Below, one piece after another: positions 10,711-42,406 of a DNA stretch of 42,496 nucleotides. Within the stretch, counting starts at the first letter, position 1. The number at the start of each line of letters is the position of its first letter. A model generated the notes under the pieces. The model did not search any database, was not told the DNA's origin, and saw only the letters and a list, made by a program, of their open reading frames with translations. Where the stretch lies: positions 1 through 42,496 of the forward strand of contig JBBTPY010000002.1 of NCBI GenBank assembly GCA_038065955.1, written 5' to 3'. The position numbers and the translations under genes were made by a program. The stretch comes from Patescibacteria group bacterium. GTDB taxonomy: Bacteria; Patescibacteriota; Minisyncoccia; UBA6257; UBA9933.

Positions 10711-10780
10711 TATAAAAGTTTCTTTGATAACAAAATAATAAGAGGAATTCAGAAAAATAAAAATCAAAAGGAGGTATATT

Positions 10781-11194
10781 ATGCAAAAAATGAATAGATG
10801 GCAAAGAATAATGGCTAAGCTTAACGATCCAACAAGAGAAGATAGAAGTATTTCCTACTGGTTAATTCTTTATATCATTTTTAAGAACCGAAAAATAACT
10901 TTTGATGCGATTGAAAATGAAGTAAAGAAATTATGGGGAAAAAGATGGAAGAAGGAAAAGAATTTTTATCTTGATTTTGGGGGATACAGCGATGGATATA
11001 ATTATAATCCTCACAGATTAAGCGATGCGCTATTAAAATGCGAAGAAGACGGTTATATTTTAGAAGTAGAAGATGATGGCATATATTATTATCATATTAC
11101 GGACAAAGGAGCACATGTTATTTTAAAAAGCATTATTTCAGAAAATAAGAGTGTAAAGAATATTATTCTGCCATTAATATTTAATAAGAAGTGA
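10781..11194 (+). CDS. Hypothetical small protein, possibly wHTH
   Basis: 137-aa ORF behind AAAGGAGGT. The tail LSDALLKCEEDGYILEVEDDGIYYYHITDKG resembles a winged-helix wing. The region is very AT-rich. Confidence 0.5.
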   Translation: MQKMNRWQRIMAKLNDPTREDRSISYWLILYIIFKNRKITFDAIENEVKKLWGKRWKKEKNFYLDFGGYSDGYNYNPHRLSDALLKCEEDGYILEVEDDGIYYYHITDKGAHVILKSIISENKSVKNIILPLIFNKK

Positions 11195-25854: not shown

Positions 25855-26436
25855 ATGAAAAAGTTATTGTTTACGACGTTTATAACTGTTTTTATTGTTT
25901 TGGCAGTCTCGTTGCCGCAAGTCTTTGCCTTTGATTATCTGAAGTTTGCATTAGGGGTGGGAAGCGGTTATGTAATTCACGAGGCAGCGCATCAGGCAGT
26001 TGCAGGGGTGAATGGAACACCATTTAAATGGCAGAATGGATTCGGTAGTACATGGGTAACATCCAATAATACCTCAGACAGCGAAAGATACGAGCTTGCC
26101 TCTGCTGGTCTGGGCTCACAGGTATTATCAACAGAGATAATATTAAACACAAAAGACATACCAAAAGACAGCGAATATGTAATCGGTATACTTACTTTTA
26201 ATGTTGTGAATGCCCTGCTATATGTGGTGAGTGACGGCGTAATGAGCCCTCATGACAATTACGGCGATATAGAGATGATGGACAAGGCAGGTCTTGACAG
26301 GGACTATGTTGGAACATTCTTGGTGGTTCATTCTCTGTATACAATATATAGGGCATATTATAAAACCGATATCCCTGTATATCTTACAATGAACAAGAAT
26401 GAAATAAAGATGGGCGTAACAATATTGAAGTGGTAA
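25855..26436 (+). CDS. Exported/membrane protein with an HExxH motif (putative metalloprotease-like), compositionally atypical
   Basis: 193 aa with a signal/TM N-terminus (LLFTTFITVFIVLAVSLPQVFA) and the motif YVIHEAAHQAV. It has a strong SD. Codon choice is visibly GC-richer than in its neighbours. Confidence 0.55.
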   Translation: MKKLLFTTFITVFIVLAVSLPQVFAFDYLKFALGVGSGYVIHEAAHQAVAGVNGTPFKWQNGFGSTWVTSNNTSDSERYELASAGLGSQVLSTEIILNTKDIPKDSEYVIGILTFNVVNALLYVVSDGVMSPHDNYGDIEMMDKAGLDRDYVGTFLVVHSLYTIYRAYYKTDIPVYLTMNKNEIKMGVTILKW

Positions 26437-26546: not shown

Positions 26547-28331
26547 ATGTTGAATAAGAATAAGCAAAAATTTTACGATGGCCTAAAAATCGTTTTTCGT
26601 TATTTATCTAATTATAAAAAAGAATTAACAATTATTTCTTTTTTGGGCATAGTTTCGGCCATCGGTAACGGTGTTATTCCTTATTTGGCGGGGCGTCTTT
26701 TTGACGCAATTATACAGCCGTTTAATATTTTTGGCGGCAGTTCGATAGAAATGCCGCTTTGGCTATTATTTATAATTTTATGGATAATTATTCGATTAAT
26801 TACAGATGTGATTGATTGGATAATCAATATCAGGGGCGCCCACATGGAAGAATTTATTCATTCTGATTACATAATTAATAGTTTGAATATACTTTTAGAA
26901 TTGCCGATTTCTTTTCATAAAGATAAAAAAATGGGAGAAGTCGCTGATAAAATCAATCGCGCCGCCAATTGGATTAGCAGAATCTCAAGTGATGTGATTA
27001 TCGGTTTAAGTCCTCAATTTTTAAGCGTTTTTGTGGCTCTGGCAGTATCATTTTATGTTAATTATTTTTTATCCATTATTCTTATCGGAGCGGTTGTGAT
27101 ATATATAATTATTTTAATAAAAATAGCGCCCCCCTTGGCAGTGCTTCAAAGGAAGTCAAATCGAGCCTATGGCAAAGCGTTTGCTGATTCGTATGACGCA
27201 ATTTTTAACGTGGTTTCCGTTAAGCAGGCGGTGGCGGAAAAATACTAACAAAACAAAATTTTTAAGAATTTCCGCTTAAAAGCCGCCAATATTTATGCTC
27301 GAATGATGACTATTTGGCAGGGGATGAATTTTTATCAGCGTTTGATTGTCACATTAACGCAATTTATTATTTATGGAATTTCGTTTTATTTAATTTTGGA
27401 AGGAAGGATGACTATTGGAGAATTGGTAATGTTTAACGGTTATGCCGCTATGCTTTTCGGGCCATTTGTAAAATTGGGACACAATTGGCAAGTTGTCCAA
27501 AATGGTCTGATTGCTTTAGAACGGGCAGAAAAAATTTTAATTTTGCCTAAGGAAATTTATCGGCCGGAAAACGCGCCAGTGCTGTCTGAAATAAAAGGCG
27601 AAGTGGAATTTAAAGACGTTTCTTTTGCTTATAAAAATGGCAAGCCGGTTTTGGAAAATATAAATTTTAAGGTTAAGGCGGGCGAAGTGATTGCTTTGGT
27701 CGGGGAAAGCGGTATGGGCAAAAGCACGCTGATGGATTTGATTTCCGCTTATTATTTCCCAATAGCCGGAAAAGTTTTGATTGACGGACATGATACAAAA
27801 AATTTGGATTTGAAGTTTTTGCGCTCAAAAATTTCTGTTGTGCCCCAAGAAATTGTTTTATTTAATGATACGATTGAAATTAATATAAAATATGGAAGTT
27901 TTGGTGCGTCTTTAAAAAAAATTATGGATGCGGCGCAAAAGGCTCATGCTTTGGAATTTATTGAAAATTTTCCCAAAAAATGGAAACAAATAGTCGGCGA
28001 GAGAGGGGTCAAGCTTTCAGTCGGTCAAAAACAAAGAGTGGCGATTGCTCGGGCGATTTTGAGGAATCCGAAAATTTTGATTTTAGACGAGCCCACTTCG
28101 GCTTTGGACGCAAAATCAGAAAGCATAATTAAAGAGTCTTTGGAGGAATTAATGAAAGGCAGAACAACTTTTATCGTTGCTCATCGTTTAAGCACAGTCA
28201 GAAAAGCTGATAGAATATTAGTATTGGATAAAGGAAAAATTACGGAAAGCGGGACTCATGATGAATTAGTGAAGAAAAAGGGTGGCATTTACCGCCAGCT
28301 TTACGAATTACAAATCGGGCTGCGGAAGTAA
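26547..28331 (+). pseudogene. MsbA-type ABC exporter (TMD+NBD) interrupted by a single in-frame TAA
   Basis: ORFs 26547..27248 and 27303..28331 share one frame (offset 756 nt). Only TAA at 27246-27248 separates them (..VAEKY*QNKIFKNFRLKAANIYARMM..). The NBD has Walker A GESGMGKST, signature LSVGQKQR and Walker B ILILDEPTS. Confidence 0.75.
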
Positions 28332-31493: not shown

Positions 31494-32132
31494 TTATTGG
31501 AGGACGTCTAGAAATTCTTTTTCAAGTTCCGTAAGATTTTTACCAAAAATATTAATTACAATTTTATTAAAACGATAATAAGAATAATAAATTGAAGATG
31601 ATTTTATTAATTGTTTTATTTTTTTAAATCCGTATTTATCAATAATATAGTGCGTGAATAAATAAGCAGTTGGATAAGCGCTTAAATTATTTCTGAATCG
31701 ATTCCAATTATAAAGTGTGTCAAGTTTACCACAAAAATTTGCTTCAAAATATTTAACTTTTGAGTTTTTATATTGCCCGGAAATAACCCCGGCCAATCCT
31801 TCAATTAACCACATAGGAAGAGTTTTGCTGTTTGACAAATGATTTGTGTAAATATGAATAAGTTCATGTTTAATTAAAAAAGGAAATTCTTCGAGTTTAT
31901 GCGATGGCGCTTCTTTTTTCCATCGCGCTGGATCCAGTAATAAAATTGTTTTTTTATTAGAGTTTGCGTTCCCAATTTCCCAATCAGCGGTTTTTCTGCC
32001 TAATAATTTTTCATATTCTGTTCTGTTTTTGGCAACCGTTATTTCAATATTTTCCAAATGAAAACCAAAAAAATCAGCAATTTCTTTGCGGGCGTTTTTA
32101 ATTTCTGTGTCGTATTTTGTGGTTTTGGGCAT
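31494..32132 (-). CDS. Cytoplasmic HExxH gluzincin-like peptidase (MA-clan-like), cassette 1
   Basis: 212 aa. HELIH is followed ~18 residues later by WLIEGLAG (third-ligand Glu pattern). No signal peptide. It is divergent from rSAM cassette 1. Confidence 0.6.
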   Translation of the reverse strand: MPKTTKYDTEIKNARKEIADFFGFHLENIEITVAKNRTEYEKLLGRKTADWEIGNANSNKKTILLLDPARWKKEAPSHKLEEFPFLIKHELIHIYTNHLSNSKTLPMWLIEGLAGVISGQYKNSKVKYFEANFCGKLDTLYNWNRFRNNLSAYPTAYLFTHYIIDKYGFKKIKQLIKSSSIYYSYYRFNKIVINIFGKNLTELEKEFLDVLQ

Positions 32133-32235
32133 AAATTTTCTTTAATTTAATCATACCAAATCTTTTTTATTTCGCCCACTTCTTGCTTAATTTCTCCCTA
32201 GTTAATTTCCTCTTATATTGTAGTATAATCTGGGT

Positions 32236-32304
32236 ATGGAAATATTAGTTACCGGCGCTATTGGCAAGGGCAAAACTTCGCTTTCGGCGTTTTGCTATCA
32301 TTGA
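32236..32304 (+). pseudogene. 22-codon remnant of a P-loop NTPase N-terminus behind a leaderless-type promoter
   Basis: TATAAT at 32224-32229 is followed by 6 nt and ATG 32236. The ORF reads MEILVTGAIGKGKTSLSAFCYH*, and GxxGxGKT(S) is a Walker A loop. It is truncated after 22 codons. Confidence 0.4.
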
Positions 32305-32335
32305 TGATAGCGGGAAATTGCGGATATATCGGCGC

Positions 32336-32465
32336 TTGACAAATTGGTTTGACTTGATATCATAAAACCAGCGTTTGGCTAAAATGGTTTAGTCAAAAGG
32401 ACATTAAAAAATAACGGCGAAGCCGTTTATAAGGGAGAAAATTTAAGAAAAGGAGGTGAAAAAAA
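32336..32465 (+). promoter_or_regulatory. Conserved promoter + two-hairpin 5' leader, cassette 1
   Basis: TTGACA lies at 32336-32341. Hairpin 1 is TTTGGCTAAA-ATGG-TTTAGTCAAA (32374-32397). Hairpin 2 is AACGGC-GAA-GCCGTT (32413-32427). The SD is AAAAGGAGGTG. It is homologous to the elements at 35512, 38160 and 40742. Confidence 0.65.
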
Positions 32466-33920
32466 ATGAAAAAGCAAAAATATCAGCTATCCCCAAATGT
32501 CCGCATCATATTTAATTCTGGAACAGAAACAGCGATGGTTTATCACGCGCTGTATGGCAATCCTCGGATTATCAATAACGAAGGTTTACATTTTTTGAAT
32601 TTATTTAGACAGCCGGTTGGTATGAAAGAAATATCTGAAATTTGCGATGGAGATTCAGAAGATACTATTCAAGAGTTTACTGAAATCTTTTTCCTTGTTA
32701 AACCCGGTTTCGACGAGAAAAAGTTCCTGCGAGAAAAAAAAGAACAGCAACTTATCCAAGTGCAAGAACGGCGGACGGTTGACAGGATGGGTCTCGCAAT
32801 CAGTGATTCGTGCAACTTTGGATGCACACACTGTATTCATTTCCAACCCGCAACCAACTTTGGTCAGGTACTGCTGATTTATCAACAAGCAACTCCACAG
32901 CTCAATATGACTTGGGAAACCGCAAAGCGATGCGTGGATCAGTATATTGCATTGATGAGATATCAAAAAAGGACTCACGGAAAGATACATTTCGGAAACG
33001 CAGAACCATTAGTCAATTGGCCTGTCATTAAGCAGGTGCTTGAATACTGCAGTAAGATGAGTGATCTCTCGTTTGAGTTCGCCATCAATACAAACATGGC
33101 GTTCATGACCAGACAAATTGCCGAGGCACTCAAGAAACATCAAGTTCACATTGCGACTTCACTCGATGGTACCCAGGTAGCCAACGATGCTATCCGTATT
33201 ACAAAGGGTGGGCAAGGAACATTCGTTCACATCCTTAAAAAATTTGATCTTTTAGTAAAGATTGGCTATCCGCTCGACGGATTCAGTATTACTATTACAA
33301 GAAGAAATTTTGATCTCGTTGATACGGATATTCTTGACTTGGCGATTGAAAGAAAAATGACTTCAATTGCCTTCGATTATGACCTTGTCGGTTTGGTTCA
33401 TATTCCAGTTGAGAAACGAATCACAAAACTCATGCGGCTCAAAAAATACGCCAACGAACACGGCGTCGATTTCTTTGGAACGTGGGATTCTCCGTTTCGT
33501 AATCTAACATCAGAAAGTCTTTTGTTTGGAGATCACGCGTTTTGCGCCGCTGTTCAGGGTAAATCTCTTGAGTTTAACGTGAATGGCAGTATTAAGATTT
33601 GTAGTCATACCACTACGCCGATAGGTCATATAGATAGATTTGATGGAGTGTTTGAAGAAAGGGGCGGTTTAGTGCAAATAGTTGCCAGTCGTTTCCCCGG
33701 AACGAATGAGTACTGTTCCGGCTGTGAGATAGAAGGACCCTGTGGCGGACAATGCCATGTTACCAGAGAGGTTGTTTCATGCTCGGCAAGCGAGAATCGA
33801 CAAAAATTCTTTGTCGATATGTGTGATTTTTATCGTGAAATTACAAAAGCGCTTGCCATAGAGTATCTCCGGTCAAATGGCGATAGCATGGCAAGTAGTC
33901 GCAAACGCTGTACTTTGTGA
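32466..33920 (+). CDS. Radical SAM / SPASM-domain peptide maturase, cassette 1
   Basis: 484 aa. A ~110-aa N-terminal (RRE-like?) region precedes CNFGCTHC (Cx3Cx2C). The C-terminal auxiliary-cluster Cys pattern is CAAV..ICSH..CSGCEIEGPCGGQCHV. Confidence 0.85.
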   Translation: MKKQKYQLSPNVRIIFNSGTETAMVYHALYGNPRIINNEGLHFLNLFRQPVGMKEISEICDGDSEDTIQEFTEIFFLVKPGFDEKKFLREKKEQQLIQVQERRTVDRMGLAISDSCNFGCTHCIHFQPATNFGQVLLIYQQATPQLNMTWETAKRCVDQYIALMRYQKRTHGKIHFGNAEPLVNWPVIKQVLEYCSKMSDLSFEFAINTNMAFMTRQIAEALKKHQVHIATSLDGTQVANDAIRITKGGQGTFVHILKKFDLLVKIGYPLDGFSITITRRNFDLVDTDILDLAIERKMTSIAFDYDLVGLVHIPVEKRITKLMRLKKYANEHGVDFFGTWDSPFRNLTSESLLFGDHAFCAAVQGKSLEFNVNGSIKICSHTTTPIGHIDRFDGVFEERGGLVQIVASRFPGTNEYCSGCEIEGPCGGQCHVTREVVSCSASENRQKFFVDMCDFYREITKALAIEYLRSNGDSMASSRKRCTL

Positions 33921-33936
33921 AAGGAGGTGAATCTAT

Positions 33937-34032
33937 ATGAAAAAAATCAAAATCAAAAAAATCAAAATTACCAAAGTCGTTTCCATGCCTTCGGGAGCAT
34001 TTTTTCCTGGTAAACGAACAGGTTGCAAGTAA
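33937..34032 (+). CDS. Candidate precursor peptide 1 (31 aa, Lys/Ile-rich, single Cys)
   Basis: The SD AAAGGAGGTG lies 7 nt upstream of ATG 33937. The peptide is MKKIKIKKIKITKVVSMPSGAFFPGKRTGCK. It occupies the same position as the mini-ORFs in cassettes 2-4 and is followed by a terminator. It is absent from the ORF track. Confidence 0.5.
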   Translation: MKKIKIKKIKITKVVSMPSGAFFPGKRTGCK

Positions 34033-35221: not shown

Positions 35222-35493
35222 ATGTCAACCATTCTTGAAAATATCAAAATCATTATAGACAACGATCCAAAAGATTACGAGGTTAATAGTTTTTTAAGAA
35301 GATCATAATTTCATCAATGAAATCTCTTATTCTTGTCTTCCACGCTTTTAGGGATTTATTAATCAGGCATTTGCCAAATTTAAGAGAAAAAGAAAATTCT
35401 TTCGCGTTTCTAGTGCATCCGAGAGATACAAAAGACGTTTACCGGAAATATCCGTTTGCCGAATATCTGCCGGAAAATATGCTCTATAATTAA
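35222..35493 (+). pseudogene. Remnant of an unidentified gene in two pieces behind a leaderless-type promoter
   Basis: TGGTATAAT lies at 35207-35215, followed by 6 nt and ATG 35222. Piece one is MSTILENIKIIIDNDPKDYEVNSFLRRS* (35222-35308). Piece two is MKSLILVFHAFRDLLIRHLPNLREKENSFAFLVHPRDTKDVYRKYPFAEYLPENMLYN* (35317-35493). Both end abruptly. Confidence 0.5.
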
Positions 35494-35633
35494 CCGTATT
35501 TTGTCGCGCGCTTGACAAATCTGTTTAGTTTACTATTATAAAATCAGCATTTGGCTAAATGGGTTAGCCGAAATAACTTAACAAATAACGGCGAGAGCTG
35601 TTTATAAGGAAAGATTTTAAATGAAAAGGAGGT
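35339..35633 (+). repeat. 295-bp direct repeat, copy 1 (identical by eye to 37987..38281)
   Basis: Comparing the two stretches by eye, base for base, from TCCACGCTTTTAGGG to AAAAGGAGGT found no difference. The repeat covers the remnant ORF, the TTGACA promoter and the structured leader. Confidence 0.85.
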
Positions 35634-35640
35634 GAGAATA
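35512..35640 (+). promoter_or_regulatory. Conserved promoter + two-hairpin 5' leader, cassette 2
   Basis: TTGACA lies at 35512-35517. Hairpin 1 is TTTGGCTAA-ATGGG-TTAGCCGAA (35550-35572). Hairpin 2 is AACGGC-GAGA-GCTGTT (35587-35602). The SD is AAAAGGAGGTG. Confidence 0.65.
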
Positions 35641-36939
35641 ATGAAAAACAAAACATTTCTTGAGAAAGATACATTTATTGTTAGGGATGGAGAAACGTAT
35701 ATTATATATGCTCCATTTCGTGGTTTGATTACTCGGATAAATGAATTTCCAAAGAAAAATTCTCTGTTTTATTATCAATTAATTGATGTGGGATTTTTCC
35801 GCGAACCGCCTAAGTCGATAAAACGAGATGTTGAATGGCGCGATTTCCGTTCGCTTACGCTCTTACTTACGCGCGCGTGTAATATGAGTTGTATATATTG
35901 TTATGCGAAAGCGACGTCAAATGGAGAACGGATGCCTCTTAAAATTGCCCTCGGAACAGTTGAGTGGTTTTTGAAACAATTTATTGGAGAAACCATCAGA
36001 ATTACATTTCATGGCGGCGGAGAACCTACTCTGGAAATTAAAACAATTAAGAGAGTTGTGGAATATATTGAACGACATAAAAGAGATAAAAAAACTACTT
36101 ATCTTATTACCACAAACGGTACTGCGAAGCGGGAAATATGGGATTGGCTTGTAAATTATCAATTTGGCATTTCTATTTCCATGGATGGTCCTCCCGATAT
36201 TCAGAATCGTAATCGTCCTCTTGCGGTTTTAGGACAAAAAAATTCTTCTCAAATTGTTGAACGGAATTTGAAATTCTTAATAACGCGGGAATATCCTTTT
36301 TCCGTGCGACTTACTTTTTCACCAACCGATGATATTACGCGCATTGTTAAATATTTTGGCGAATTAGGAGTTAAGACACTTCATCTTGAACCGCTTTTTC
36401 CCTATGGAAGAGAATATAAATCGGTGGAATTTGGAGGAAAAAGCCGATATAAAATATATTCTCCTCAAGGCGAGGAGTTATTAAAAAATTTTTGGCAGGC
36501 GCTGGAAATGGCGCGAAAATATGGAATGAAGATTCGCAATGGACATATCAGTTATTTTACGAAAGGTATTGGATATTTTTGCGGCGCTGCGAGCGCGCGG
36601 TCTATGATAGTAAATCACGAAGGAAAACTTACTGGGTGTCTCGAGGTGGTAGACTCTTTAGATTTAGATGCTAATATATTTAATTTCGGTTATTATGTAC
36701 CAGAAGAAAAGCGGTTTGAGATTGATTTTAGTAAGGTAAAGATAATGCAAGAACGTCATGCCGACGCGCTTTCAGGGTGTAATTTATGTTATGCGCGATA
36801 TACTTGCGCTGGAGGGTGCGCCGTAAAAGCAGTGCGAGAATCAAATAATTTCTTTGCGCGTGATTTATTATATTGCGCGTTCACAAAAAATCTAATTCCT
36901 TTATTAGTTAAACATATTGTTAATACCACAGGAATTTAA
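35641..36939 (+). CDS. Radical SAM / SPASM-domain peptide maturase, cassette 2
   Basis: CNMSCIYC (Cx3Cx2C) follows an ~80-aa N-terminal region. The C-terminal pattern is CGAAS..LTGC..CNLCYARYTCAGGCAV. I prefer ATG 35641 (SD 7 nt upstream) over the track's GTG 35632. Confidence 0.85.
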   Translation: MKNKTFLEKDTFIVRDGETYIIYAPFRGLITRINEFPKKNSLFYYQLIDVGFFREPPKSIKRDVEWRDFRSLTLLLTRACNMSCIYCYAKATSNGERMPLKIALGTVEWFLKQFIGETIRITFHGGGEPTLEIKTIKRVVEYIERHKRDKKTTYLITTNGTAKREIWDWLVNYQFGISISMDGPPDIQNRNRPLAVLGQKNSSQIVERNLKFLITREYPFSVRLTFSPTDDITRIVKYFGELGVKTLHLEPLFPYGREYKSVEFGGKSRYKIYSPQGEELLKNFWQALEMARKYGMKIRNGHISYFTKGIGYFCGAASARSMIVNHEGKLTGCLEVVDSLDLDANIFNFGYYVPEEKRFEIDFSKVKIMQERHADALSGCNLCYARYTCAGGCAVKAVRESNNFFARDLLYCAFTKNLIPLLVKHIVNTTGI

Positions 36940-36957
36940 GAAAGGAGGTAAATAACG

Positions 36958-37113
36958 ATGAAAACTTTTACAGCTGTTCTTCCCGAAGAGTTAGTTCTTG
37001 GAGTGGATAGCTCTGTTTCTAGTTGTAATGGGCATGAAGGTTGTAGCGGCGATGATTGCAACGCGGATACTGGCGGATGCCCTTCAGATGGAAGTTGTGG
37101 CCAGGATTGTTAA
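36958..37113 (+). CDS. Candidate precursor peptide 2 (51 aa, six Cys in an acidic Gly/Ser-rich core)
   Basis: The SD GAAAGGAGGT precedes ATG 36958. The peptide is MKTFTAVLPEELVLGVDSSVSSCNGHEGCSGDDCNADTGGCPSDGSCGQDC. It is absent from the ORF track and is followed by a terminator. Confidence 0.7.
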   Translation: MKTFTAVLPEELVLGVDSSVSSCNGHEGCSGDDCNADTGGCPSDGSCGQDC

Positions 37114-37137: not shown

Positions 37138-37178
37138 AGCAGTGAATCAGTTTAACTGGTTCACTGCTTTATTTTTTT
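37138..37178. terminator. Bidirectional terminator after cassette 2
   Basis: AGCAGTGAATCAG pairs with CTGGTTCACTGCT (13 bp, one U.G) around loop TTTAA, followed by TTATTTTTTT. It overlaps the stop of the minus-strand peptidase. Confidence 0.75.
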
Positions 37179-37867
37179 AACCACTCTTTCCAATTTTTTT
37201 GTAATTCTTGATATGTCATTTTAAAAATAATAGAACAAAGATATTCGTCATTAATCCCATTATTGCGCATTTCTTTTATAAATTTTAATAATAATTCAAG
37301 GCCGTATTTTTTAACGCAATATTGCGCGATACTGCCGGCCAAAGGATAGAAATCACTTGGCAAGGTTGATCTCCAAAAATCCCATGGAGTGTTTAATATC
37401 TCATTGGAATAATTCATAAAATTAGCGTGTTTTTTCTTATCAGCGTTTGCGCCGTCATAATATACGCATAATGATTCTTCCCATAAGCCGTTTGCCGGAA
37501 GATTTTCCGATGGATTTATACTTCCTAATAAAATATGATTTAATTCATGTCCTGGAGATTGTTTTAAATGCCCGTGAATTTCTTTTTGTTTAAGAAAAGA
37601 AATTGCCGGCGTTATGCCGATATCTTTTACGGAATTGATTGACGGATATACATAAAAATTAACATTTGAGATTGGATTAATGCCGAATATTTTCGCGTTT
37701 TGTAAATAAATATTTACGCGTTCTTGAATCCAGTTTGAAGGGATTTTTAAATTAGGATAAATATGAAAAACAATATATTTTGTTTTTTTAACACTCCAAT
37801 TATTAAAAAATCCTTCCCCTTTGAGTTTTTTTATTTGATTTTTTGTTTTTTCAAACCAATTTATCAT
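37169..37867 (-). CDS. Cytoplasmic HExxH peptidase-like protein, cassette 3
   Basis: 232 aa. HELNH is followed ~19 residues later by LWEESLCVYY. No signal peptide. It is divergent from rSAM cassette 3. Confidence 0.55.
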   Translation of the reverse strand: MINWFEKTKNQIKKLKGEGFFNNWSVKKTKYIVFHIYPNLKIPSNWIQERVNIYLQNAKIFGINPISNVNFYVYPSINSVKDIGITPAISFLKQKEIHGHLKQSPGHELNHILLGSINPSENLPANGLWEESLCVYYDGANADKKKHANFMNYSNEILNTPWDFWRSTLPSDFYPLAGSIAQYCVKKYGLELLLKFIKEMRNNGINDEYLCSIIFKMTYQELQKNWKEWLKK

Positions 37868-37961: not shown

Positions 37962-38141
37962 ATGTTTAAAAGTGTTATTTTAATTCTCCACGCTTTTAGG
38001 GATTTATTAATCAGGCATTTGCCAAATTTAAGAGAAAAAGAAAATTCTTTCGCGTTTCTAGTGCATCCGAGAGATACAAAAGACGTTTACCGGAAATATC
38101 CGTTTGCCGAATATCTGCCGGAAAATATGCTCTATAATTAA
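37962..38141 (+). pseudogene. Second copy of the gene remnant (59 codons) behind a leaderless-type promoter
   Basis: TGGTATAAT lies at 37947-37955, followed by 6 nt and ATG 37962. The ORF reads MFKSVILILHAFRDLLIRHLPNLREKENSFAFLVHPRDTKDVYRKYPFAEYLPENMLYN*. It matches 35317..35493 except for the first residues. The track's TTG 37956 start is less likely. Confidence 0.5.
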
Positions 38142-38281
38142 CCGTATTTTGTCGCGCGCTTGACAAATCTGTTTAGTTTACTATTATAAAATCAGCATTT
38201 GGCTAAATGGGTTAGCCGAAATAACTTAACAAATAACGGCGAGAGCTGTTTATAAGGAAAGATTTTAAATGAAAAGGAGGT
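37987..38281 (+). repeat. 295-bp direct repeat, copy 2
   Basis: It lies at a constant offset of 2648 nt from copy 1. No mismatch was seen by eye. Confidence 0.85.
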
Positions 38282-38289
38282 AAAAAGAG
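38160..38289 (+). promoter_or_regulatory. Conserved promoter + two-hairpin 5' leader, cassette 3
   Basis: TTGACA lies at 38160-38165. The hairpins are identical to cassette 2 (38198-38220 and 38235-38250). The SD is AAAAGGAGGT. Confidence 0.65.
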
Positions 38290-39564
38290 ATGAAAAGAGA
38301 AAAATATTTTACTCTGAATAAAAATTGCTTTTTAATTAAAGGAGCAAAACGAGGAGCGATTTATGATTTAGAATCAGGAAATGTATTTTCAGTGAACGAA
38401 GTAAGTGTTAAAATCTTAGAGGAATTAGATTCTTGGAAAGAATTTAAGCAGGTTTTTCAAGAAGACAAAAACATAACAGAGGGGAAATTAGTCATTTATT
38501 TAAATAAACTTAAAAAACTTGGTTTAGGGGAATGGAGCGAAATCTACAGAGAGAAATTAAACGTTATCCCAAAACCAATAGACGTTCTCAAATTTGTTCT
38601 TCATCTTGAATTGACTACTGGTTGCAACTTGTGTTGCGTTCATTGTTATAACGAAAGCGAAATAACCAAATTTAGAAAAAATAATAATCTTTCTCTTAAT
38701 GAATGGAAGAGGATTATAAAAGAAGCTTATGAGATTGGTTGTAGAAGAGTCCAATTTATCGGAGGAGAACCATTTTTGAAAAGGAGATTGTTGTATACTT
38801 CGATTCTGCTTGCTCGGGAAATAGGTTATACTTCAATAGAAGTAAGTACTAATGGAACCTTAATAACAGAAAAAGATTTGGACTTTTTAAAAGAAAATAC
38901 GGTTAGTTTAGCCTTTTCTGTTTATAGTTATAACTCTAATGTGCATGATGCTATTACTGCCAAAAAAGGAAGCCAAAAACAAACATTGCGTACAATTAAA
39001 AGAGCTTTGGAGATGGATATTAATTTTAGAATATCAGTAGTGGCAATGAGGCAAAACGAAAAAGAAATTAAGAAGACAGTTAAGTTTTTAAAATCTCTTG
39101 GAATTCAGCATGTAAAGACAAATACTGTTGAACCAGTGGGTAGAGGCTGTAATGATAATCTTATTACCGCTGATATAGTAGACCAACAGATTTTAGACAG
39201 ACCTTCTTTCTTTAAAATTAATTACAATACATTTTGGAGAAATAAATTAGGGCATAACTGTTTTCTTGAACATATTTGTATTGCGGCAGATGGTAATATT
39301 TATCCTTGTCTTGCGGAACGAGAAATTTCTTACGGAAATATAAAATCAACTCCGTTGAATGAAATTTTTTCATCAGAGATAGCGCAAAACTTTCGCAATT
39401 TAAATAAGGATTATATTGAAGTTTGCCGAGATTGCGAATATCGATATTGTTGCTTTGATTGTCGCGTAAAAGCCAGAGATTCTTTAATTAATAGTTTTTA
39501 CACAAAATCTTGGTGGTGTTTCTATGATCCATATAAGGGTCAGTGGCATAAAAAAATTAATTAA
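38290..39564 (+). CDS. Radical SAM / SPASM-domain peptide maturase, cassette 3
   Basis: CNLCCVHC (Cx3Cx2C) follows a ~105-aa N-terminal region. The C-terminal pattern is CFLEHICIAADGNIYPC..CRDCEYRYCCFDCRV. Confidence 0.85.
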   Translation: MKREKYFTLNKNCFLIKGAKRGAIYDLESGNVFSVNEVSVKILEELDSWKEFKQVFQEDKNITEGKLVIYLNKLKKLGLGEWSEIYREKLNVIPKPIDVLKFVLHLELTTGCNLCCVHCYNESEITKFRKNNNLSLNEWKRIIKEAYEIGCRRVQFIGGEPFLKRRLLYTSILLAREIGYTSIEVSTNGTLITEKDLDFLKENTVSLAFSVYSYNSNVHDAITAKKGSQKQTLRTIKRALEMDINFRISVVAMRQNEKEIKKTVKFLKSLGIQHVKTNTVEPVGRGCNDNLITADIVDQQILDRPSFFKINYNTFWRNKLGHNCFLEHICIAADGNIYPCLAEREISYGNIKSTPLNEIFSSEIAQNFRNLNKDYIEVCRDCEYRYCCFDCRVKARDSLINSFYTKSWWCFYDPYKGQWHKKIN

Positions 39565-39580
39565 AAAGGAGGTGAGAATT

Positions 39581-39709
39581 ATGGCAAAGAATATTGAAAA
39601 ACAAAAAGAAGATGATGGATTGGAAATTCAATTAATAACAAGCGAGTTGGCGACTGATGGTGTTTGTGGCCCCGATACTTGTCCTTGGGTTGGCTGTGAG
39701 GTGAGCTAA
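39581..39709 (+). CDS. Candidate precursor peptide 3 (42 aa, C-x4-C-x4-C core)
   Basis: The SD AAAAGGAGGTG precedes ATG 39581. The peptide is MAKNIEKQKEDDGLEIQLITSELATDGVCGPDTCPWVGCEVS. The track's 39524 start lies inside the rSAM gene and has no SD. Confidence 0.7.
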   Translation: MAKNIEKQKEDDGLEIQLITSELATDGVCGPDTCPWVGCEVS

Positions 39710-40625: not shown

Positions 40626-40745
40626 ATGCTTAAAGATTATCTAAAAAACTTATTATTAGGTGTTGCGGAAAGAAAGCCGAATGCGAAGATTTTTAATCTT
40701 TTCAAAAAAGATTATACCAGAGGCGCGAAATATATACAGGATTGA
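40626..40745 (+). CDS. 39-codon small ORF behind a leaderless-type promoter
   Basis: TGGTATAAT lies at 40611-40619, followed by 6 nt and ATG 40626. The ORF reads MLKDYLKNLLLGVAERKPNAKIFNLFKKDYTRGAKYIQD*. Its TGA overlaps the TTGACA of the cassette promoter. The coding status is uncertain. Confidence 0.3.
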   Translation: MLKDYLKNLLLGVAERKPNAKIFNLFKKDYTRGAKYIQD

Positions 40746-40869
40746 CAAATTGGTTTGACTTACTATACTAAAATCAGTGTTTGGCTAAAATGGGTTTAGC
40801 CAAAAGAACTTTGAAAAACAACGGCAGGGCCGTTTAGATGAAAAAATTAAGAAAAGGAGGGAAAAAGAA
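40742..40869 (+). promoter_or_regulatory. Conserved promoter + two-hairpin 5' leader, cassette 4
   Basis: TTGACA lies at 40742-40747. Hairpin 1 is TTTGGCTAAA-ATGGG-TTTAGCCAAA (40780-40804, perfect 10 bp). Hairpin 2 is AACGGC-AGG-GCCGTT (40820-40834). The SD is AAAAGGAGGG. Confidence 0.65.
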
Positions 40870-42294
40870 ATGGGAAAAGATTATTCTTTTTCAATGGATG
40901 ACATTCCTACTAAAGCGGATTTTATTTATAAGGATCAGATTGACGAGTTAACCTTAATGTGCACGCCATTAGCAATGAACGGTATACACTTATTAAGTGT
41001 GAAGTCTTTATCTGTGTTGAACCAATGTAGTGGTGTTTTCTCAATTGGAGAAATTATTCAATTAACCGGCTGTGAAAAAACATATGTCTTTGGTGTAATC
41101 AACATTCTGTGGCAGAATAGGCTTATCAGAATCAACGGTGAGTTTCCGCCGAATGACAACAGAATTAGTTTATCTAAGCAAATTGATGTTTGGTTTCATA
41201 TCACAAATAACTGTAATCTCCGTTGTCCTTACTGTTACATTCAAAAGACTAATGAGTCAATGAATAAAAGAATGGCGTATCTGGCTGTTGATAATCTAAT
41301 TAATAGTGCATTATCGCATTATATTCCGGAAGTGCGTCTTAAATTCACGGGCGGAGAACCGTTATTGCGTTTTTCTCTTATTAAAGGATTGGTAAATTAC
41401 AGCAAAAGACAAGGCGAAGAAAGAGGAGTAAAATTCAGTTTTCATATTTTAACTAATGGGACTCTTCTTTCAGAAAAAATTGTTAGATATCTCAAGGAAG
41501 AAAATATCACACTTTCACTTTCTCTTGATGGTGTTGAGGAAGAGAATAACCGATTGAGATATTATGCGAATAGCAAGGGCACTTTCAGGCGTATTGAGCA
41601 ATCCATGAAACTCTTAAAAGACTATGGAATTCGTCCATATATCCTTACAACTGTTACGGCTTTGAATCTTGATGGTTTACCAGCTTTCACCCGCTATGTG
41701 ATAAAAAATAAGTTTTCTGTTCGTTTTAGTCTATATCGCGAATTAGGTGTTTCAAAAGAGGCGTTAAAAAATTACACCGATGAAGTGATAAAAATTCTTC
41801 ATAAATGTTACGATATCTATGAAGAAAATTTACCAGAAGAAGATTTTTCTTCTGTACATCAATTGTGCGATATTAAATTGAAAAAAAGCAGAAAACGGGT
41901 TTGCGGAATTGGCACTAAAGGAGTAAGTATTGGTCACCGAGGAGAAATTGCTCTTTGCCAAGCATTGTTCAACAAACCCATAGGGCATATCTCAAAAGAC
42001 GATGCTCTTGCCGCTGTTCGTAATCAAAATCAATTCCCATCTCATAAATATTCCATTAATAATTACGAACATTGCAAAGATTGTAATTGGCGATATTTGT
42101 GCGGCGGCGGATGTCCCGTGTTAACTAAACTGCAATACGGCAGATTCGACACATTTTCTCCTTATTGCGAAGTATTTAGAACTTTAATTCCTAGATTGAT
42201 TAGGATTATGGGACTTCAGATTTTGCGGGCACATAGGAAAACAATGACTGAAATCGAGAAACAAAAAGGAGGTGATTTAGATGCAAATCAATGA
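40870..42294 (+). CDS. Radical SAM / SPASM-domain peptide maturase, cassette 4
   Basis: CNLRCPYC (Cx3Cx2C) follows a ~110-aa N-terminal region. The C-terminal pattern is CGIGTKG..IALC..CKDCNWRYLCGGGCPV. Confidence 0.85.
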   Translation: MGKDYSFSMDDIPTKADFIYKDQIDELTLMCTPLAMNGIHLLSVKSLSVLNQCSGVFSIGEIIQLTGCEKTYVFGVINILWQNRLIRINGEFPPNDNRISLSKQIDVWFHITNNCNLRCPYCYIQKTNESMNKRMAYLAVDNLINSALSHYIPEVRLKFTGGEPLLRFSLIKGLVNYSKRQGEERGVKFSFHILTNGTLLSEKIVRYLKEENITLSLSLDGVEEENNRLRYYANSKGTFRRIEQSMKLLKDYGIRPYILTTVTALNLDGLPAFTRYVIKNKFSVRFSLYRELGVSKEALKNYTDEVIKILHKCYDIYEENLPEEDFSSVHQLCDIKLKKSRKRVCGIGTKGVSIGHRGEIALCQALFNKPIGHISKDDALAAVRNQNQFPSHKYSINNYEHCKDCNWRYLCGGGCPVLTKLQYGRFDTFSPYCEVFRTLIPRLIRIMGLQILRAHRKTMTEIEKQKGGDLDANQ

Positions 42295-42406
42295 AAATTA
42301 CGGCATAATTTCTGGATTTACTGCTGACACATTAATTATTTCGCAGTGCCAGGAGTGCGCTCCCGTAGAAGACTGCGATTGTCATTGTGTTGACGATGAT
42401 GATTAG
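42281..42406 (+). CDS. Candidate precursor peptide 4 (41 aa, five Cys, poly-Asp tail)
   Basis: The SD AAAAGGAGGTG lies inside the rSAM 3' end. ATG 42281 overlaps the rSAM gene by 14 nt. The peptide is MQINENYGIISGFTADTLIISQCQECAPVEDCDCHCVDDDD. It is absent from the ORF track. Confidence 0.7.
   Translation: MQINENYGIISGFTADTLIISQCQECAPVEDCDCHCVDDDD

Follow-up and report, generated by a model that had tools for sequence, protein, structure and literature searches.

Why should four peptide-maturation cassettes whose enzymes have diverged strongly each stand behind almost the same ~130 nucleotides (nt)? The question is raised by a 42,496-nt stretch of DNA from a Patescibacteria group bacterium (assembly GCA_038065955.1, contig JBBTPY010000002.1, positions 1 to 42,496 of the forward strand; hereafter the window), in which four radical S-adenosylmethionine (rSAM) genes, each followed by a small peptide gene, are preceded by four copies of a leader with two hairpins. 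We find that this element is real, that its RNA motif is new and of a familiar general type, and that it is a portable promoter/5' untranslated region (5'UTR) module restricted to one clade, not a conserved riboswitch of the rSAM genes. The function that we favor, with a probability of roughly 0.4, is that of a portable expression module whose 5'UTR would act in cis to protect the mRNA, in the manner of the leader of Escherichia coli ompA.

Four leaders of common layout precede divergent rSAM genes

In each copy the order is TTGACA, 16 nt, a −10 box (TATCAT, TATTAT or TATACT), ~10 nt, hairpin 1, an A-rich spacer of 15–20 nt, hairpin 2 and a strong Shine-Dalgarno (SD) sequence (Table 1). Across the window copies the arms of hairpin 1 are TTTGGCTAA(A) / (T)TTAGYCRAA and those of hairpin 2 are AACGGC / GCYGTT (as a pattern, AACGGC..GCYGTTTA); TTTATAAGG or TTTAGATG stands between hairpin 2 and the SD, and the distance from the end of hairpin 2 to the SD is 3–25 nt. 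The initial annotation, made from the letters alone, had described four such leaders at these positions, with these arms, these G.U pairs and the hairpin 2 loops GAA, GAGA and AGG, and all of this was recovered. In a promoter scan of 10.6 kb all four copies match 11 of the 12 consensus positions, that is, they are four of the five top-scoring (11/12) matches; the patterns of hairpin 1 and hairpin 2 each occur exactly four times in the 42.5 kb, with 0.00 occurrences expected in shuffled sequence. The left arms of the hairpins are invariant among the window copies.

Copies 2 and 3 have an identical leader that lies inside a 300-nt direct repeat (35320–35619 and 37968–38267; 97% identical); they are a recent duplicate, so the window contains three independent copies. 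The repeat also spans an open reading frame (ORF) of 58–61 codons (..FAFLVHPRD..) with no family match, and copy 2 has 92 nt extra past the upstream promoter. In both copies (35622–35636 and 38270–38284) behind a first SD (AAGGAAAG) comes a mini-ORF, ATG AAA AGG AGG TGA (MKRR*), that encloses a second SD; in the short-form leaders of three loci outside the window (L027, L029 and L034) the gene starts at the position of the first SD's mini-ORF.

The genes downstream of the four leaders encode rSAM/SPASM peptide-maturase-like proteins that are pairwise only 21–24% identical, as against 76–84% identity for the independent leaders, so the strong divergence of the enzymes noted at the outset is evident; none of the four proteins reaches the cut-off of any named NCBIfam family. 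Behind each rSAM gene lies the gene for a small peptide, Cys-rich in most cases, in the manner of cassettes for ribosomally synthesized and post-translationally modified peptides (RiPPs). The first reading of the leader as a common 5' signal for several cassettes is therefore upheld.

The stems vary as expected for RNA hairpins

Pairing was analyzed in 17 leader sequences from several genomes, over 16 stem pairs; 98% of the stem cells form standard pairs. The initial annotation had seen compensatory changes in these stems, and in the strict sense this is not supported: in the window no Watson-Crick pair is substituted by another, the differences being shifts of G.U and one paired A/T deletion, and in the 17 sequences only one of the 16 pairs is changed on both sides (C-G to U-A in L033). 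A shuffle control is not decisive, the observed pairing value being reached by 30 of 500 shuffles; with a double-sided change in one pair only, classical covariation is thus unproven. In eight of the 16 pairs the variation is confined to one side, every time via G.U. Counted as variant types, the one-sided changes comprise eight C>T or A>G changes on the + strand, which give G.U, and none that forms A.C (sign-test probability ~0.004, with a similar value from Fisher's test when compared with the unpaired columns). In the unpaired columns 9 changes have the C>T/A>G direction and 13 the opposite one, in addition to 20 transversions (24 transitions in another count); without directional bias there, mutation bias does not explain the pattern in the stems. 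The density of variants per column in the stems is about half that of the unpaired positions.

The same counts bear on the possibility that dimeric transcription factors bind the inverted repeats as operators in duplex DNA, with a repressor at +4 to +28 blocking the promoter. Palindromes of 10 bp and 6 bp directly downstream of the −10 box do occupy the classic operator position, and their left arms are invariant in the window; however, a dimer tolerates changes in its two half-sites equally, yet the eight G.U types have no mirror-image counterpart. The loops also differ in length (3–6 nt in hairpin 2; 4–5 nt in hairpin 1, which is 23–25 nt overall), so the half-sites shift relative to each other, and no gene for a DNA-binding regulator is linked to the cassettes. 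RNA hairpins would likewise be expected to keep their left arms invariant: most of the single steps that form G.U in these stems fall in the right arms. The + strand changes restricted to G.U, together with the varying loops, favor RNA hairpins, and we consider an operator very unlikely; we conclude from this pattern of variation that the hairpins appear to be selected as single-strand structures of the + strand, most simply in mRNA. Of the functional RNA structure that was originally proposed, purifying selection on + strand hairpins is retained (eight G.U types, no A.C) and strict covariation is not.

The leader matches no known riboswitch class, as was stated at the outset: in Rfam nothing reaches the gathering threshold, and up to E = 10 the sole overlapping match is ylbH (16 bits, E = 9). 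A structured leader that is located upstream of SAM-dependent enzymes and is absent from Rfam might be a metabolite riboswitch for SAM, 5'-deoxyadenosine, methionine or the peptide product, and short leader RNAs before related enzyme genes are known in the SAM-II/V/VI, SAM/SAH, preQ1-I and guanidine-II classes, the last also with two hairpins. The guanidine-II riboswitch needs ACGR loops. Unlike these small riboswitches, the leader lacks conserved loops, a pseudoknot and an expression platform, and it matches none of them in Rfam even at E = 10. Minimum-free-energy and centroid folds consist of the two simple hairpins only, with no junction, no pseudoknot partner for a loop and no alternative pairing; the SD and the start codon are open in all six folds, and no terminator is called on the + strand. 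The loop of hairpin 2 takes the forms GAA, GAGA, AGG, AAA, AAAA, GGAA, GAG, TTTT and TTTTAG; that of hairpin 1 is partly conserved (A-U-R-G). In addition, the same leader precedes genes for a GNAT protein, a kinase-like protein and a toxin-antitoxin pair, and there are orthologous rSAM genes that do not have it. With neither a conserved loop or junction, nor sequestration of the SD, nor a + strand terminator, nor an Rfam match, the leader is not riboswitch-like, and a riboswitch is barely credible.

Several other structures were tried and rejected. An intrinsic terminator or attenuator at hairpin 2 would consist of 6 bp followed by UUUAUAA, and it is not called on the + strand. A − strand terminator (hairpin 2 with a T-run complementary to the spacer) is called at 32413–32427 and 40820–40834; on that strand the G.U variants would be A.C mismatches. 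The module is unlikely to be a miniature inverted-repeat transposable element or a repetitive extragenic palindrome, with no shared inverted repeat at the module ends in copies 1 and 4. Anti-SD pairing of CUUU in the spacer with AAGG, which is present in some minimum-free-energy folds, is unconserved (copy 4 is without the AAGG and copy 1 without the CUUU), and pairing of the right arm of hairpin 1 with TTTGAC in the promoter spacer is confined to copy 1. Attenuation by an upstream 22-codon ORF was dismissed on the grounds that its stop lies ~70 nt before hairpin 1, upstream of the leader promoter, and that it shows no clear coding constraint.

The leader is a portable promoter/5'UTR module

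Copies outside the window were sought in several ways. Relatives of the cassette 1 rSAM protein (47–80% identity) were collected from species-representative genomes as 22 loci, of which 20 could be read in the 5' region; among these 20 the leader is present in one (L015) and a diverged version in another (L019). Eight additional orthologues of the cassette 1 type include the closest one (L024, 88% amino acid identity), which carries the leader; the others have leaders of a poly-G/boxA type (see below). Contigs identical to this one occur in assemblies from the Hainich aquifer, and a metagenome scan anchored on the promoter alone, with the hairpins left free, gave 12 loci, nearly all from that same aquifer. 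The covariance model suggested in the initial annotation was built from 14 distinct copies (model R1) and did find homologues, 16 distinct copies at 102–146 bits and L019 at 51 bits; it found no fifth copy in the window, none in the 10-kb flank on either side and none in the remaining loci. In all, about 11 distinct copies beyond those of the window come from related groundwater Patescibacteria.

At least nine unrelated genes stand behind the leader, including several rSAM families, a GNAT acetyltransferase, a thymidylate-kinase-like P-loop protein and a toxin-antitoxin pair; the leader is not rSAM-specific and is not inherited with the rSAM genes. Before these genes the leaders are 76–91% identical, incongruently with the relationships of the genes: the leader of L024 is 91% identical to window copy 2 and 76% identical to copy 1, the copy that precedes its own orthologue, and a leader in L025 before an unrelated rSAM gene shares 90% identity with copy 1. 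Relative to the start codon, the unit keeps one orientation and one distance throughout. Leader similarity that is independent of the downstream gene identifies a portable promoter/5'UTR module that has been exchanged between cassettes. This is the pattern of putative mobile promoters, or promoter reuse, in which near-identical upstream regions are found before non-homologous genes within and between genomes (PMC3575422); unlike those promoters, the reused unit includes a structured 5'UTR that is apparently selected at the RNA level, and its copies are concentrated in islands of RiPP cassettes within one clade of the Candidate Phyla Radiation (CPR).

The leader is also modular. In L031:993–1118 (− strand) and L005:124–248 hairpin 2 is replaced by CAGRGA GAAA TCYCTG, followed by TTRAGATAAGACAG (read by eye). 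L019, where the rSAM protein is only 47% identical, has hairpin 2 nearly intact, and promoter-proximal hairpins of unrelated sequence occur in L010, L019 and L022 (those of L010 and L022 read by eye only; L019 is also the 51-bit match to R1). Unrelated hairpins at the same position suggest that position and structure matter, not sequence. On the reverse strand of L025 (3288–2380) an orphan copy is followed by a truncated start (MEIKN*) and a RelE-type toxin-antitoxin pair of 65 and 89 amino acids (aa), which seems to have displaced the original gene. In L032:3924–4050 the same promoter and transcription start site (TSS) region leads into another hairpin, TTGGAT..GTCCAA (the C-G pair now A-T), and a terminator-like hairpin with a T-run, with no apparent ORF; this element may be a small RNA.

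A ~110-nt extension lies upstream of the leader in four loci (window copy 1, L025, L030 and L033) that have four different downstream genes. Its P-loop fragment (Table 1) reads MEILVTGAIGKGKT(S/P)LSAFCYH* across the four loci.

A candidate protective leader of the ompA type

In the function that we favor, each copy would combine a near-consensus sigma-70 promoter with a 95–105-nt 5' untranslated leader that acts as RNA in cis. Leaderless genes of the same genome have their ATG 6–7 nt after TATAAT; from this spacing the TSS is predicted ~7 nt past the −10 box, near 32370 in copy 1, that is, 3–5 nt before hairpin 1 (stem start 32374). Hairpin 1, near the 5' end, would block decay that depends on the 5' end, and hairpin 2, just before the ribosome-binding region, would keep the ribosome-binding site (RBS) unstructured or insulated, with an A-rich single strand between the two. 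The outcome would be stable and strongly translated mRNAs, with all cassettes co-expressed. The module would sense no metabolite; recombination or duplication may have carried it through one clade of Patescibacteria from groundwater, and it would be reused as a unit before successive cassettes.

The genomic context is consistent with such a role. An SD is present at 8 of 8 cassette genes (all AAGGAGG) versus 5 of the 34 non-cassette genes in the window, and 17 of those 34 have a TAnnnT box 4–17 nt before the ATG and look leaderless; with SDs rare outside the cassettes, a long 5'UTR is unusual here and would need protection. Two of the SD-led window genes share the −35 element: the extended form TTGACAAAT recurs before the gene at 25855 and plain TTGACA before that at 10781.

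The 5'UTR of E. coli ompA is reportedly a leader that stabilizes its mRNA. The likeness is one of architecture: ~130 nt with a 5'-terminal hairpin (predicted here), an A/U-rich single strand, a second hairpin and the RBS, acting as RNA in cis and free of a ligand. The two leaders differ in that they have no sequence relationship and in that the present one is multi-copy and portable, has a boxA-like single strand and has a predicted TSS; the biology of RNase E, Hfq and MicA is not implied.

Several points weigh against a protective leader. The 5'-terminal position of hairpin 1 follows from a predicted TSS, and the z-scores of the folds are modest (−1.8 to −4.2). For stabilization alone any sequence would do, yet stems and spacer alike are well conserved, and the latter coincides in place with a boxA-like motif. 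Most orthologous cassettes function without either hairpin. Finally, the upstream extension is apparently functionless, yet it is 88–96% identical where the leader is 80–87% identical, so much of the conservation could reflect recent copying.

Taken to its limit, this last point would mean that the element has no function beyond its promoter and SD, the remainder being kept by recent copying and the hairpins being incidental. Copies 2 and 3 are indeed a recent duplicate, leader similarity ignores the downstream gene, and the P-loop fragment is more conserved than the leader although it looks functionless. Recent copying does not, however, account for the strand-specific pattern restricted to G.U (sign test ~0.004), for stems with about half the variant density of unpaired columns, or for the retention of hairpin 2 in L019 at 47% rSAM identity, and we give this explanation little chance. 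Very recent duplication of all four copies as the sole source of conservation, which the initial annotation had named as a possible objection, applies to copies 2 and 3; the independent copies are 76–84% identical.

The spacer and a boxA-like motif

The published consensus of boxA is GYTCTTTAANA (PMC5725501), and in rrn leaders the order is boxB-boxA-boxC, boxA being the key element (PMC8632103). The hairpin-less orthologues of the cassette 1 type have 5' regions that are otherwise unalignable; nearly all contain a motif resembling GYTCTTTAANA at the place of the spacer. Twelve of 25 upstream regions of these rSAM orthologues match the consensus with at most one mismatch, versus 1.7% of random windows, and further variants are found in additional loci. 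With position 8 relaxed (G[CT]TCTTT[AG]ANA) there are 15 matches in ~0.4 Mb, eight of them directly downstream of TTGACAAAATG(G)n promoters; among these are the second RiPP cassette of L009 and, in L014, a gene unrelated to RiPPs.

A weight matrix built from the hairpin-less leaders alone was used to score the spacers of the hairpin-bearing family. The family consensus spacer, GAACTTTGAAA, which is also that of window copy 4, scores 10.2 bits (P about 0.002–0.017; about 0.002 in a 20-nt window); copy 1 is a weak match (5.3 bits, P 0.02–0.14), and copies 2 and 3 are not significant (0.8 bits). The window copies agree with GYTCTTTAANA at no more than 8 of 11 positions (8/11 for copy 4 and the family consensus). 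Positions C4, T6, T7, A9 and A11 of the spacer are invariant in the leader family, and across the family and the hairpin-less leaders the motif is G-[A/T/G]-[A/T]-C-[T/A/C]-T-T-[A/G/T]-A-[A/C]-A. L050, with GAACATTAACA at the TSS-proximal position, bridges the two forms. The order hairpin 1, spacer, hairpin 2 is found in all copies and corresponds to the rrn-type order of boxB, boxA and a downstream element. As a lead, the boxA-like element may be the more deeply conserved feature.

These observations raise the possibility that the leader is a nut-like site, in which the spacer would be a boxA for NusB/NusE (S10) on nascent RNA, with hairpin 1 resembling boxB and hairpin 2 downstream; the polymerase would become resistant to termination, or translation and Rho would be modulated as at suhB, and all cassettes would be under Nus-factor control. 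The matches to the boxA consensus in the hairpin-less upstream regions, the association of 8 of the 15 relaxed matches with G-run promoters, the score and invariant positions of the consensus spacer, the bridging form and the rrn order of elements (PMC8632103) all argue for it. The leader would share with rrn and lambda nut sites, and with non-rRNA boxA leaders such as that of suhB (PMC5725501, PMC8632103), a linear motif beside a hairpin in nascent 5' RNA; its hairpin-less relatives have exact matches to GYTCTTTAANA. It differs from nut sites in the imperfect agreement of the window copies and in its targets, RiPP operons that are short, translated and free of obvious internal terminators. 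Moreover, copies 2 and 3 do not match the motif and copy 1 does so weakly; conservation of the spacer does not exceed that of the promoter spacer (0.6 versus 0.67 minor alleles per column); the motif is A/T-rich within an A/T-rich genome; and it also occurs before non-RiPP genes, so it may be a general 5'UTR feature, e.g., an S1 site. The loci examined contain no rRNA, nusB or S10 gene, and the boxA of the host's rrn may differ from the consensus; in all, no nusB, rpsJ, nusG or rRNA gene was found in the 0.46 Mb of Patescibacterial DNA examined, and a literature search on RiPP regulation or NusB in the CPR found nothing relevant. We therefore regard a nut-like site as possible and on balance unlikely. 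A broader proposal, which we hold to be rather unlikely, is that a portable nut-like RNA governs the RiPP cassettes of Patescibacteria: the boxA-like motif, flanked by hairpins in this clade, would load Nus factors or a specialized RNA-binding elongation factor, unrelated cassettes would be co-controlled and new ones recruited by recombination, and the version in the sister lineage would be phase-variable through poly-G.

A dedicated RNA-binding regulator acting in trans could also switch the cassette set, either as an antiterminator (LoaP or another NusG paralogue) that binds hairpin 1, with hairpin 2 and UUUAUA as a weak terminator, or as a translational repressor. The distribution resembles that of a regulon, with the four copies grouped in a single island and no other in 20 kb of flanking sequence; the stems are well conserved and the loop of hairpin 1 partly so, and three genes past cassette 4 there is a gene for a 7TM histidine kinase. 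In Bacillus velezensis the LoaP-dependent leaders of dfn and mln are similar in that a small conserved hairpin, common to separate natural-product operons, is followed by a second hairpin (PMC12691694). Unlike the present leader, the LoaP system has a hairpin with a UNCG tetraloop and a true terminator enhanced by NusA; in the present leader the UNCG loop is missing, no terminator is called on the + strand (hairpin 2 has a 6-bp stem and only 3 U), and no loaP-like gene lies nearby. The 62 kb examined for it contain no candidate RNA-binding protein or NusG paralogue, the loop of hairpin 2 is wholly unconserved, and the stems are conserved as expected from a pure pairing constraint at this divergence. 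We judge such a regulator distinctly improbable.

Several observations were made on the poly-G promoters and on other 5' regions. A run of 5–9 G lies upstream of cassette-1-type rSAM orthologues in L001, L003, L004, L009, L043, L044, L046 and L048–L051 (e.g., L009:2560–2650), usually in the promoter spacer (TTGACAAAATGGGGGGGGGTAGTGATAAG) and elsewhere in the 5' region in L044, L048 and L051. The run varies in length from genome to genome, and one assembly is interrupted there; to judge from this it looks like a phase-variable promoter. Within the window, the long 5'UTR of an SD-led 137-aa gene (10781–11194) has a boxA-like GTTTCTTTGATAACA (10718–10732) just downstream of a TTGACA-17-TATACT promoter. 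On the − strand at 897–930, the 5' region of the gene at 417–896 has a TTGACAAGT promoter followed by CCCCGAAAGGGG and T6 directly before the ATG, that is, a terminator-like hairpin in a leader.

Features of the cassette island

The leaders, the cassettes and the upstream extension of copy 1 are listed in Table 1.

Table 1. Positions in the window of the leader copies, the cassettes that they precede and the extension upstream of copy 1.
Feature	Positions	Strand	Details
Upstream extension of copy 1	32219..32335	+	−10-only promoter TATAAT 32224-32229
Upstream extension, P-loop fragment	32236-32304	+	Leaderless, 22 codons, MEILVTGAIGKGKTSLSAFCYH*
Upstream extension, hairpin	32294-32311	+	GCTATCAT/ATGATAGC, over the stop codons of the fragment
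Leader copy 1	32336..32465	+	−35 TTGACA 32336-32341; −10 TATCAT 32358-32363; predicted TSS near 32370
Leader copy 1, hairpin 1	32374-32397	+	One G.U
Leader copy 1, spacer	32399-32409	+	Weak boxA-like GGACATTAAAA
Leader copy 1, hairpin 2	32413-32427	+	Followed by the SD AAGGAGG 32451-32457
Cassette 1	32466..34032	+	rSAM gene 32466-33920; 31-aa peptide gene 33937-34032; AAGGAGG SD on both
Leader copy 2	35512..35640	+	Hairpin 1 35550-35572 (9 bp, one U.G); hairpin 2 35587-35602 (one G.U); MKRR* mini-ORF and second SD; rSAM most likely starts at ATG 35641 (called as 432 aa)
Cassette 2	35641..37113	+	rSAM gene; 51-aa Cys-rich peptide gene 36958-37113
Leader copy 3	38160..38289	+	Hairpins 38198-38220 and 38235-38250; same as copy 2 across the hairpins
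Cassette 3	38290..39709	+	rSAM/SPASM gene; 42-aa peptide gene 39581-39709
Leader copy 4	40742..40869	+	Hairpin 1 40780-40804 (perfect 10-bp stem); boxA-like GAACTTTGAAA 40806-40816; hairpin 2 40820-40834 (perfect)
Cassette 4	40870..42406	+	rSAM/SPASM gene; 41-aa Cys-rich peptide gene 42281-42406; terminator after, 42413-42441

Genes with an HExxH motif (Peptidase_MA-like) recur beside the cassettes (31494–32132 and 37169–37867 in the window, L037:11596–12249 and L009:7088–7741), and an APH-type kinase gene always follows the rSAM gene of the cassette 1 type; both are probably accessory enzymes of the peptide pathways. Past the end of the window (L037:11596–14780), cassette 4 is followed by genes for an HExxH peptidase-like protein, a methyltransferase and a 7TM-HisKA sensor kinase, with no response regulator seen there. 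Just upstream of the island (26547–28331) an ABC exporter is apparently divided between a membrane part of 233 aa and an ATPase part of 342 aa, and may be a disrupted peptide exporter. A scan of viral contigs gave no matches (0).

Implications

Gene regulation in Patescibacteria is almost unexplored, and most genes in this window are apparently without leader and SD. A structured, SD-bearing leader on every RiPP cassette of the window bears on how reduced genomes express and exchange modules of secondary metabolism. In practical terms, the covariance model R1 and the boxA-like matrix are a sequence handle for unannotated peptide cassettes in CPR metagenomes, and the leader provides a promoter/5'UTR part ready for use where CPR genes are to be expressed heterologously. 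A more unusual lead comes from the boxA-like element common to the leaders of RiPP cassettes across Patescibacteria; if the boxA reading is true, control by Nus factors would cover natural-product cassettes as well as rRNA in a deep lineage of bacteria.

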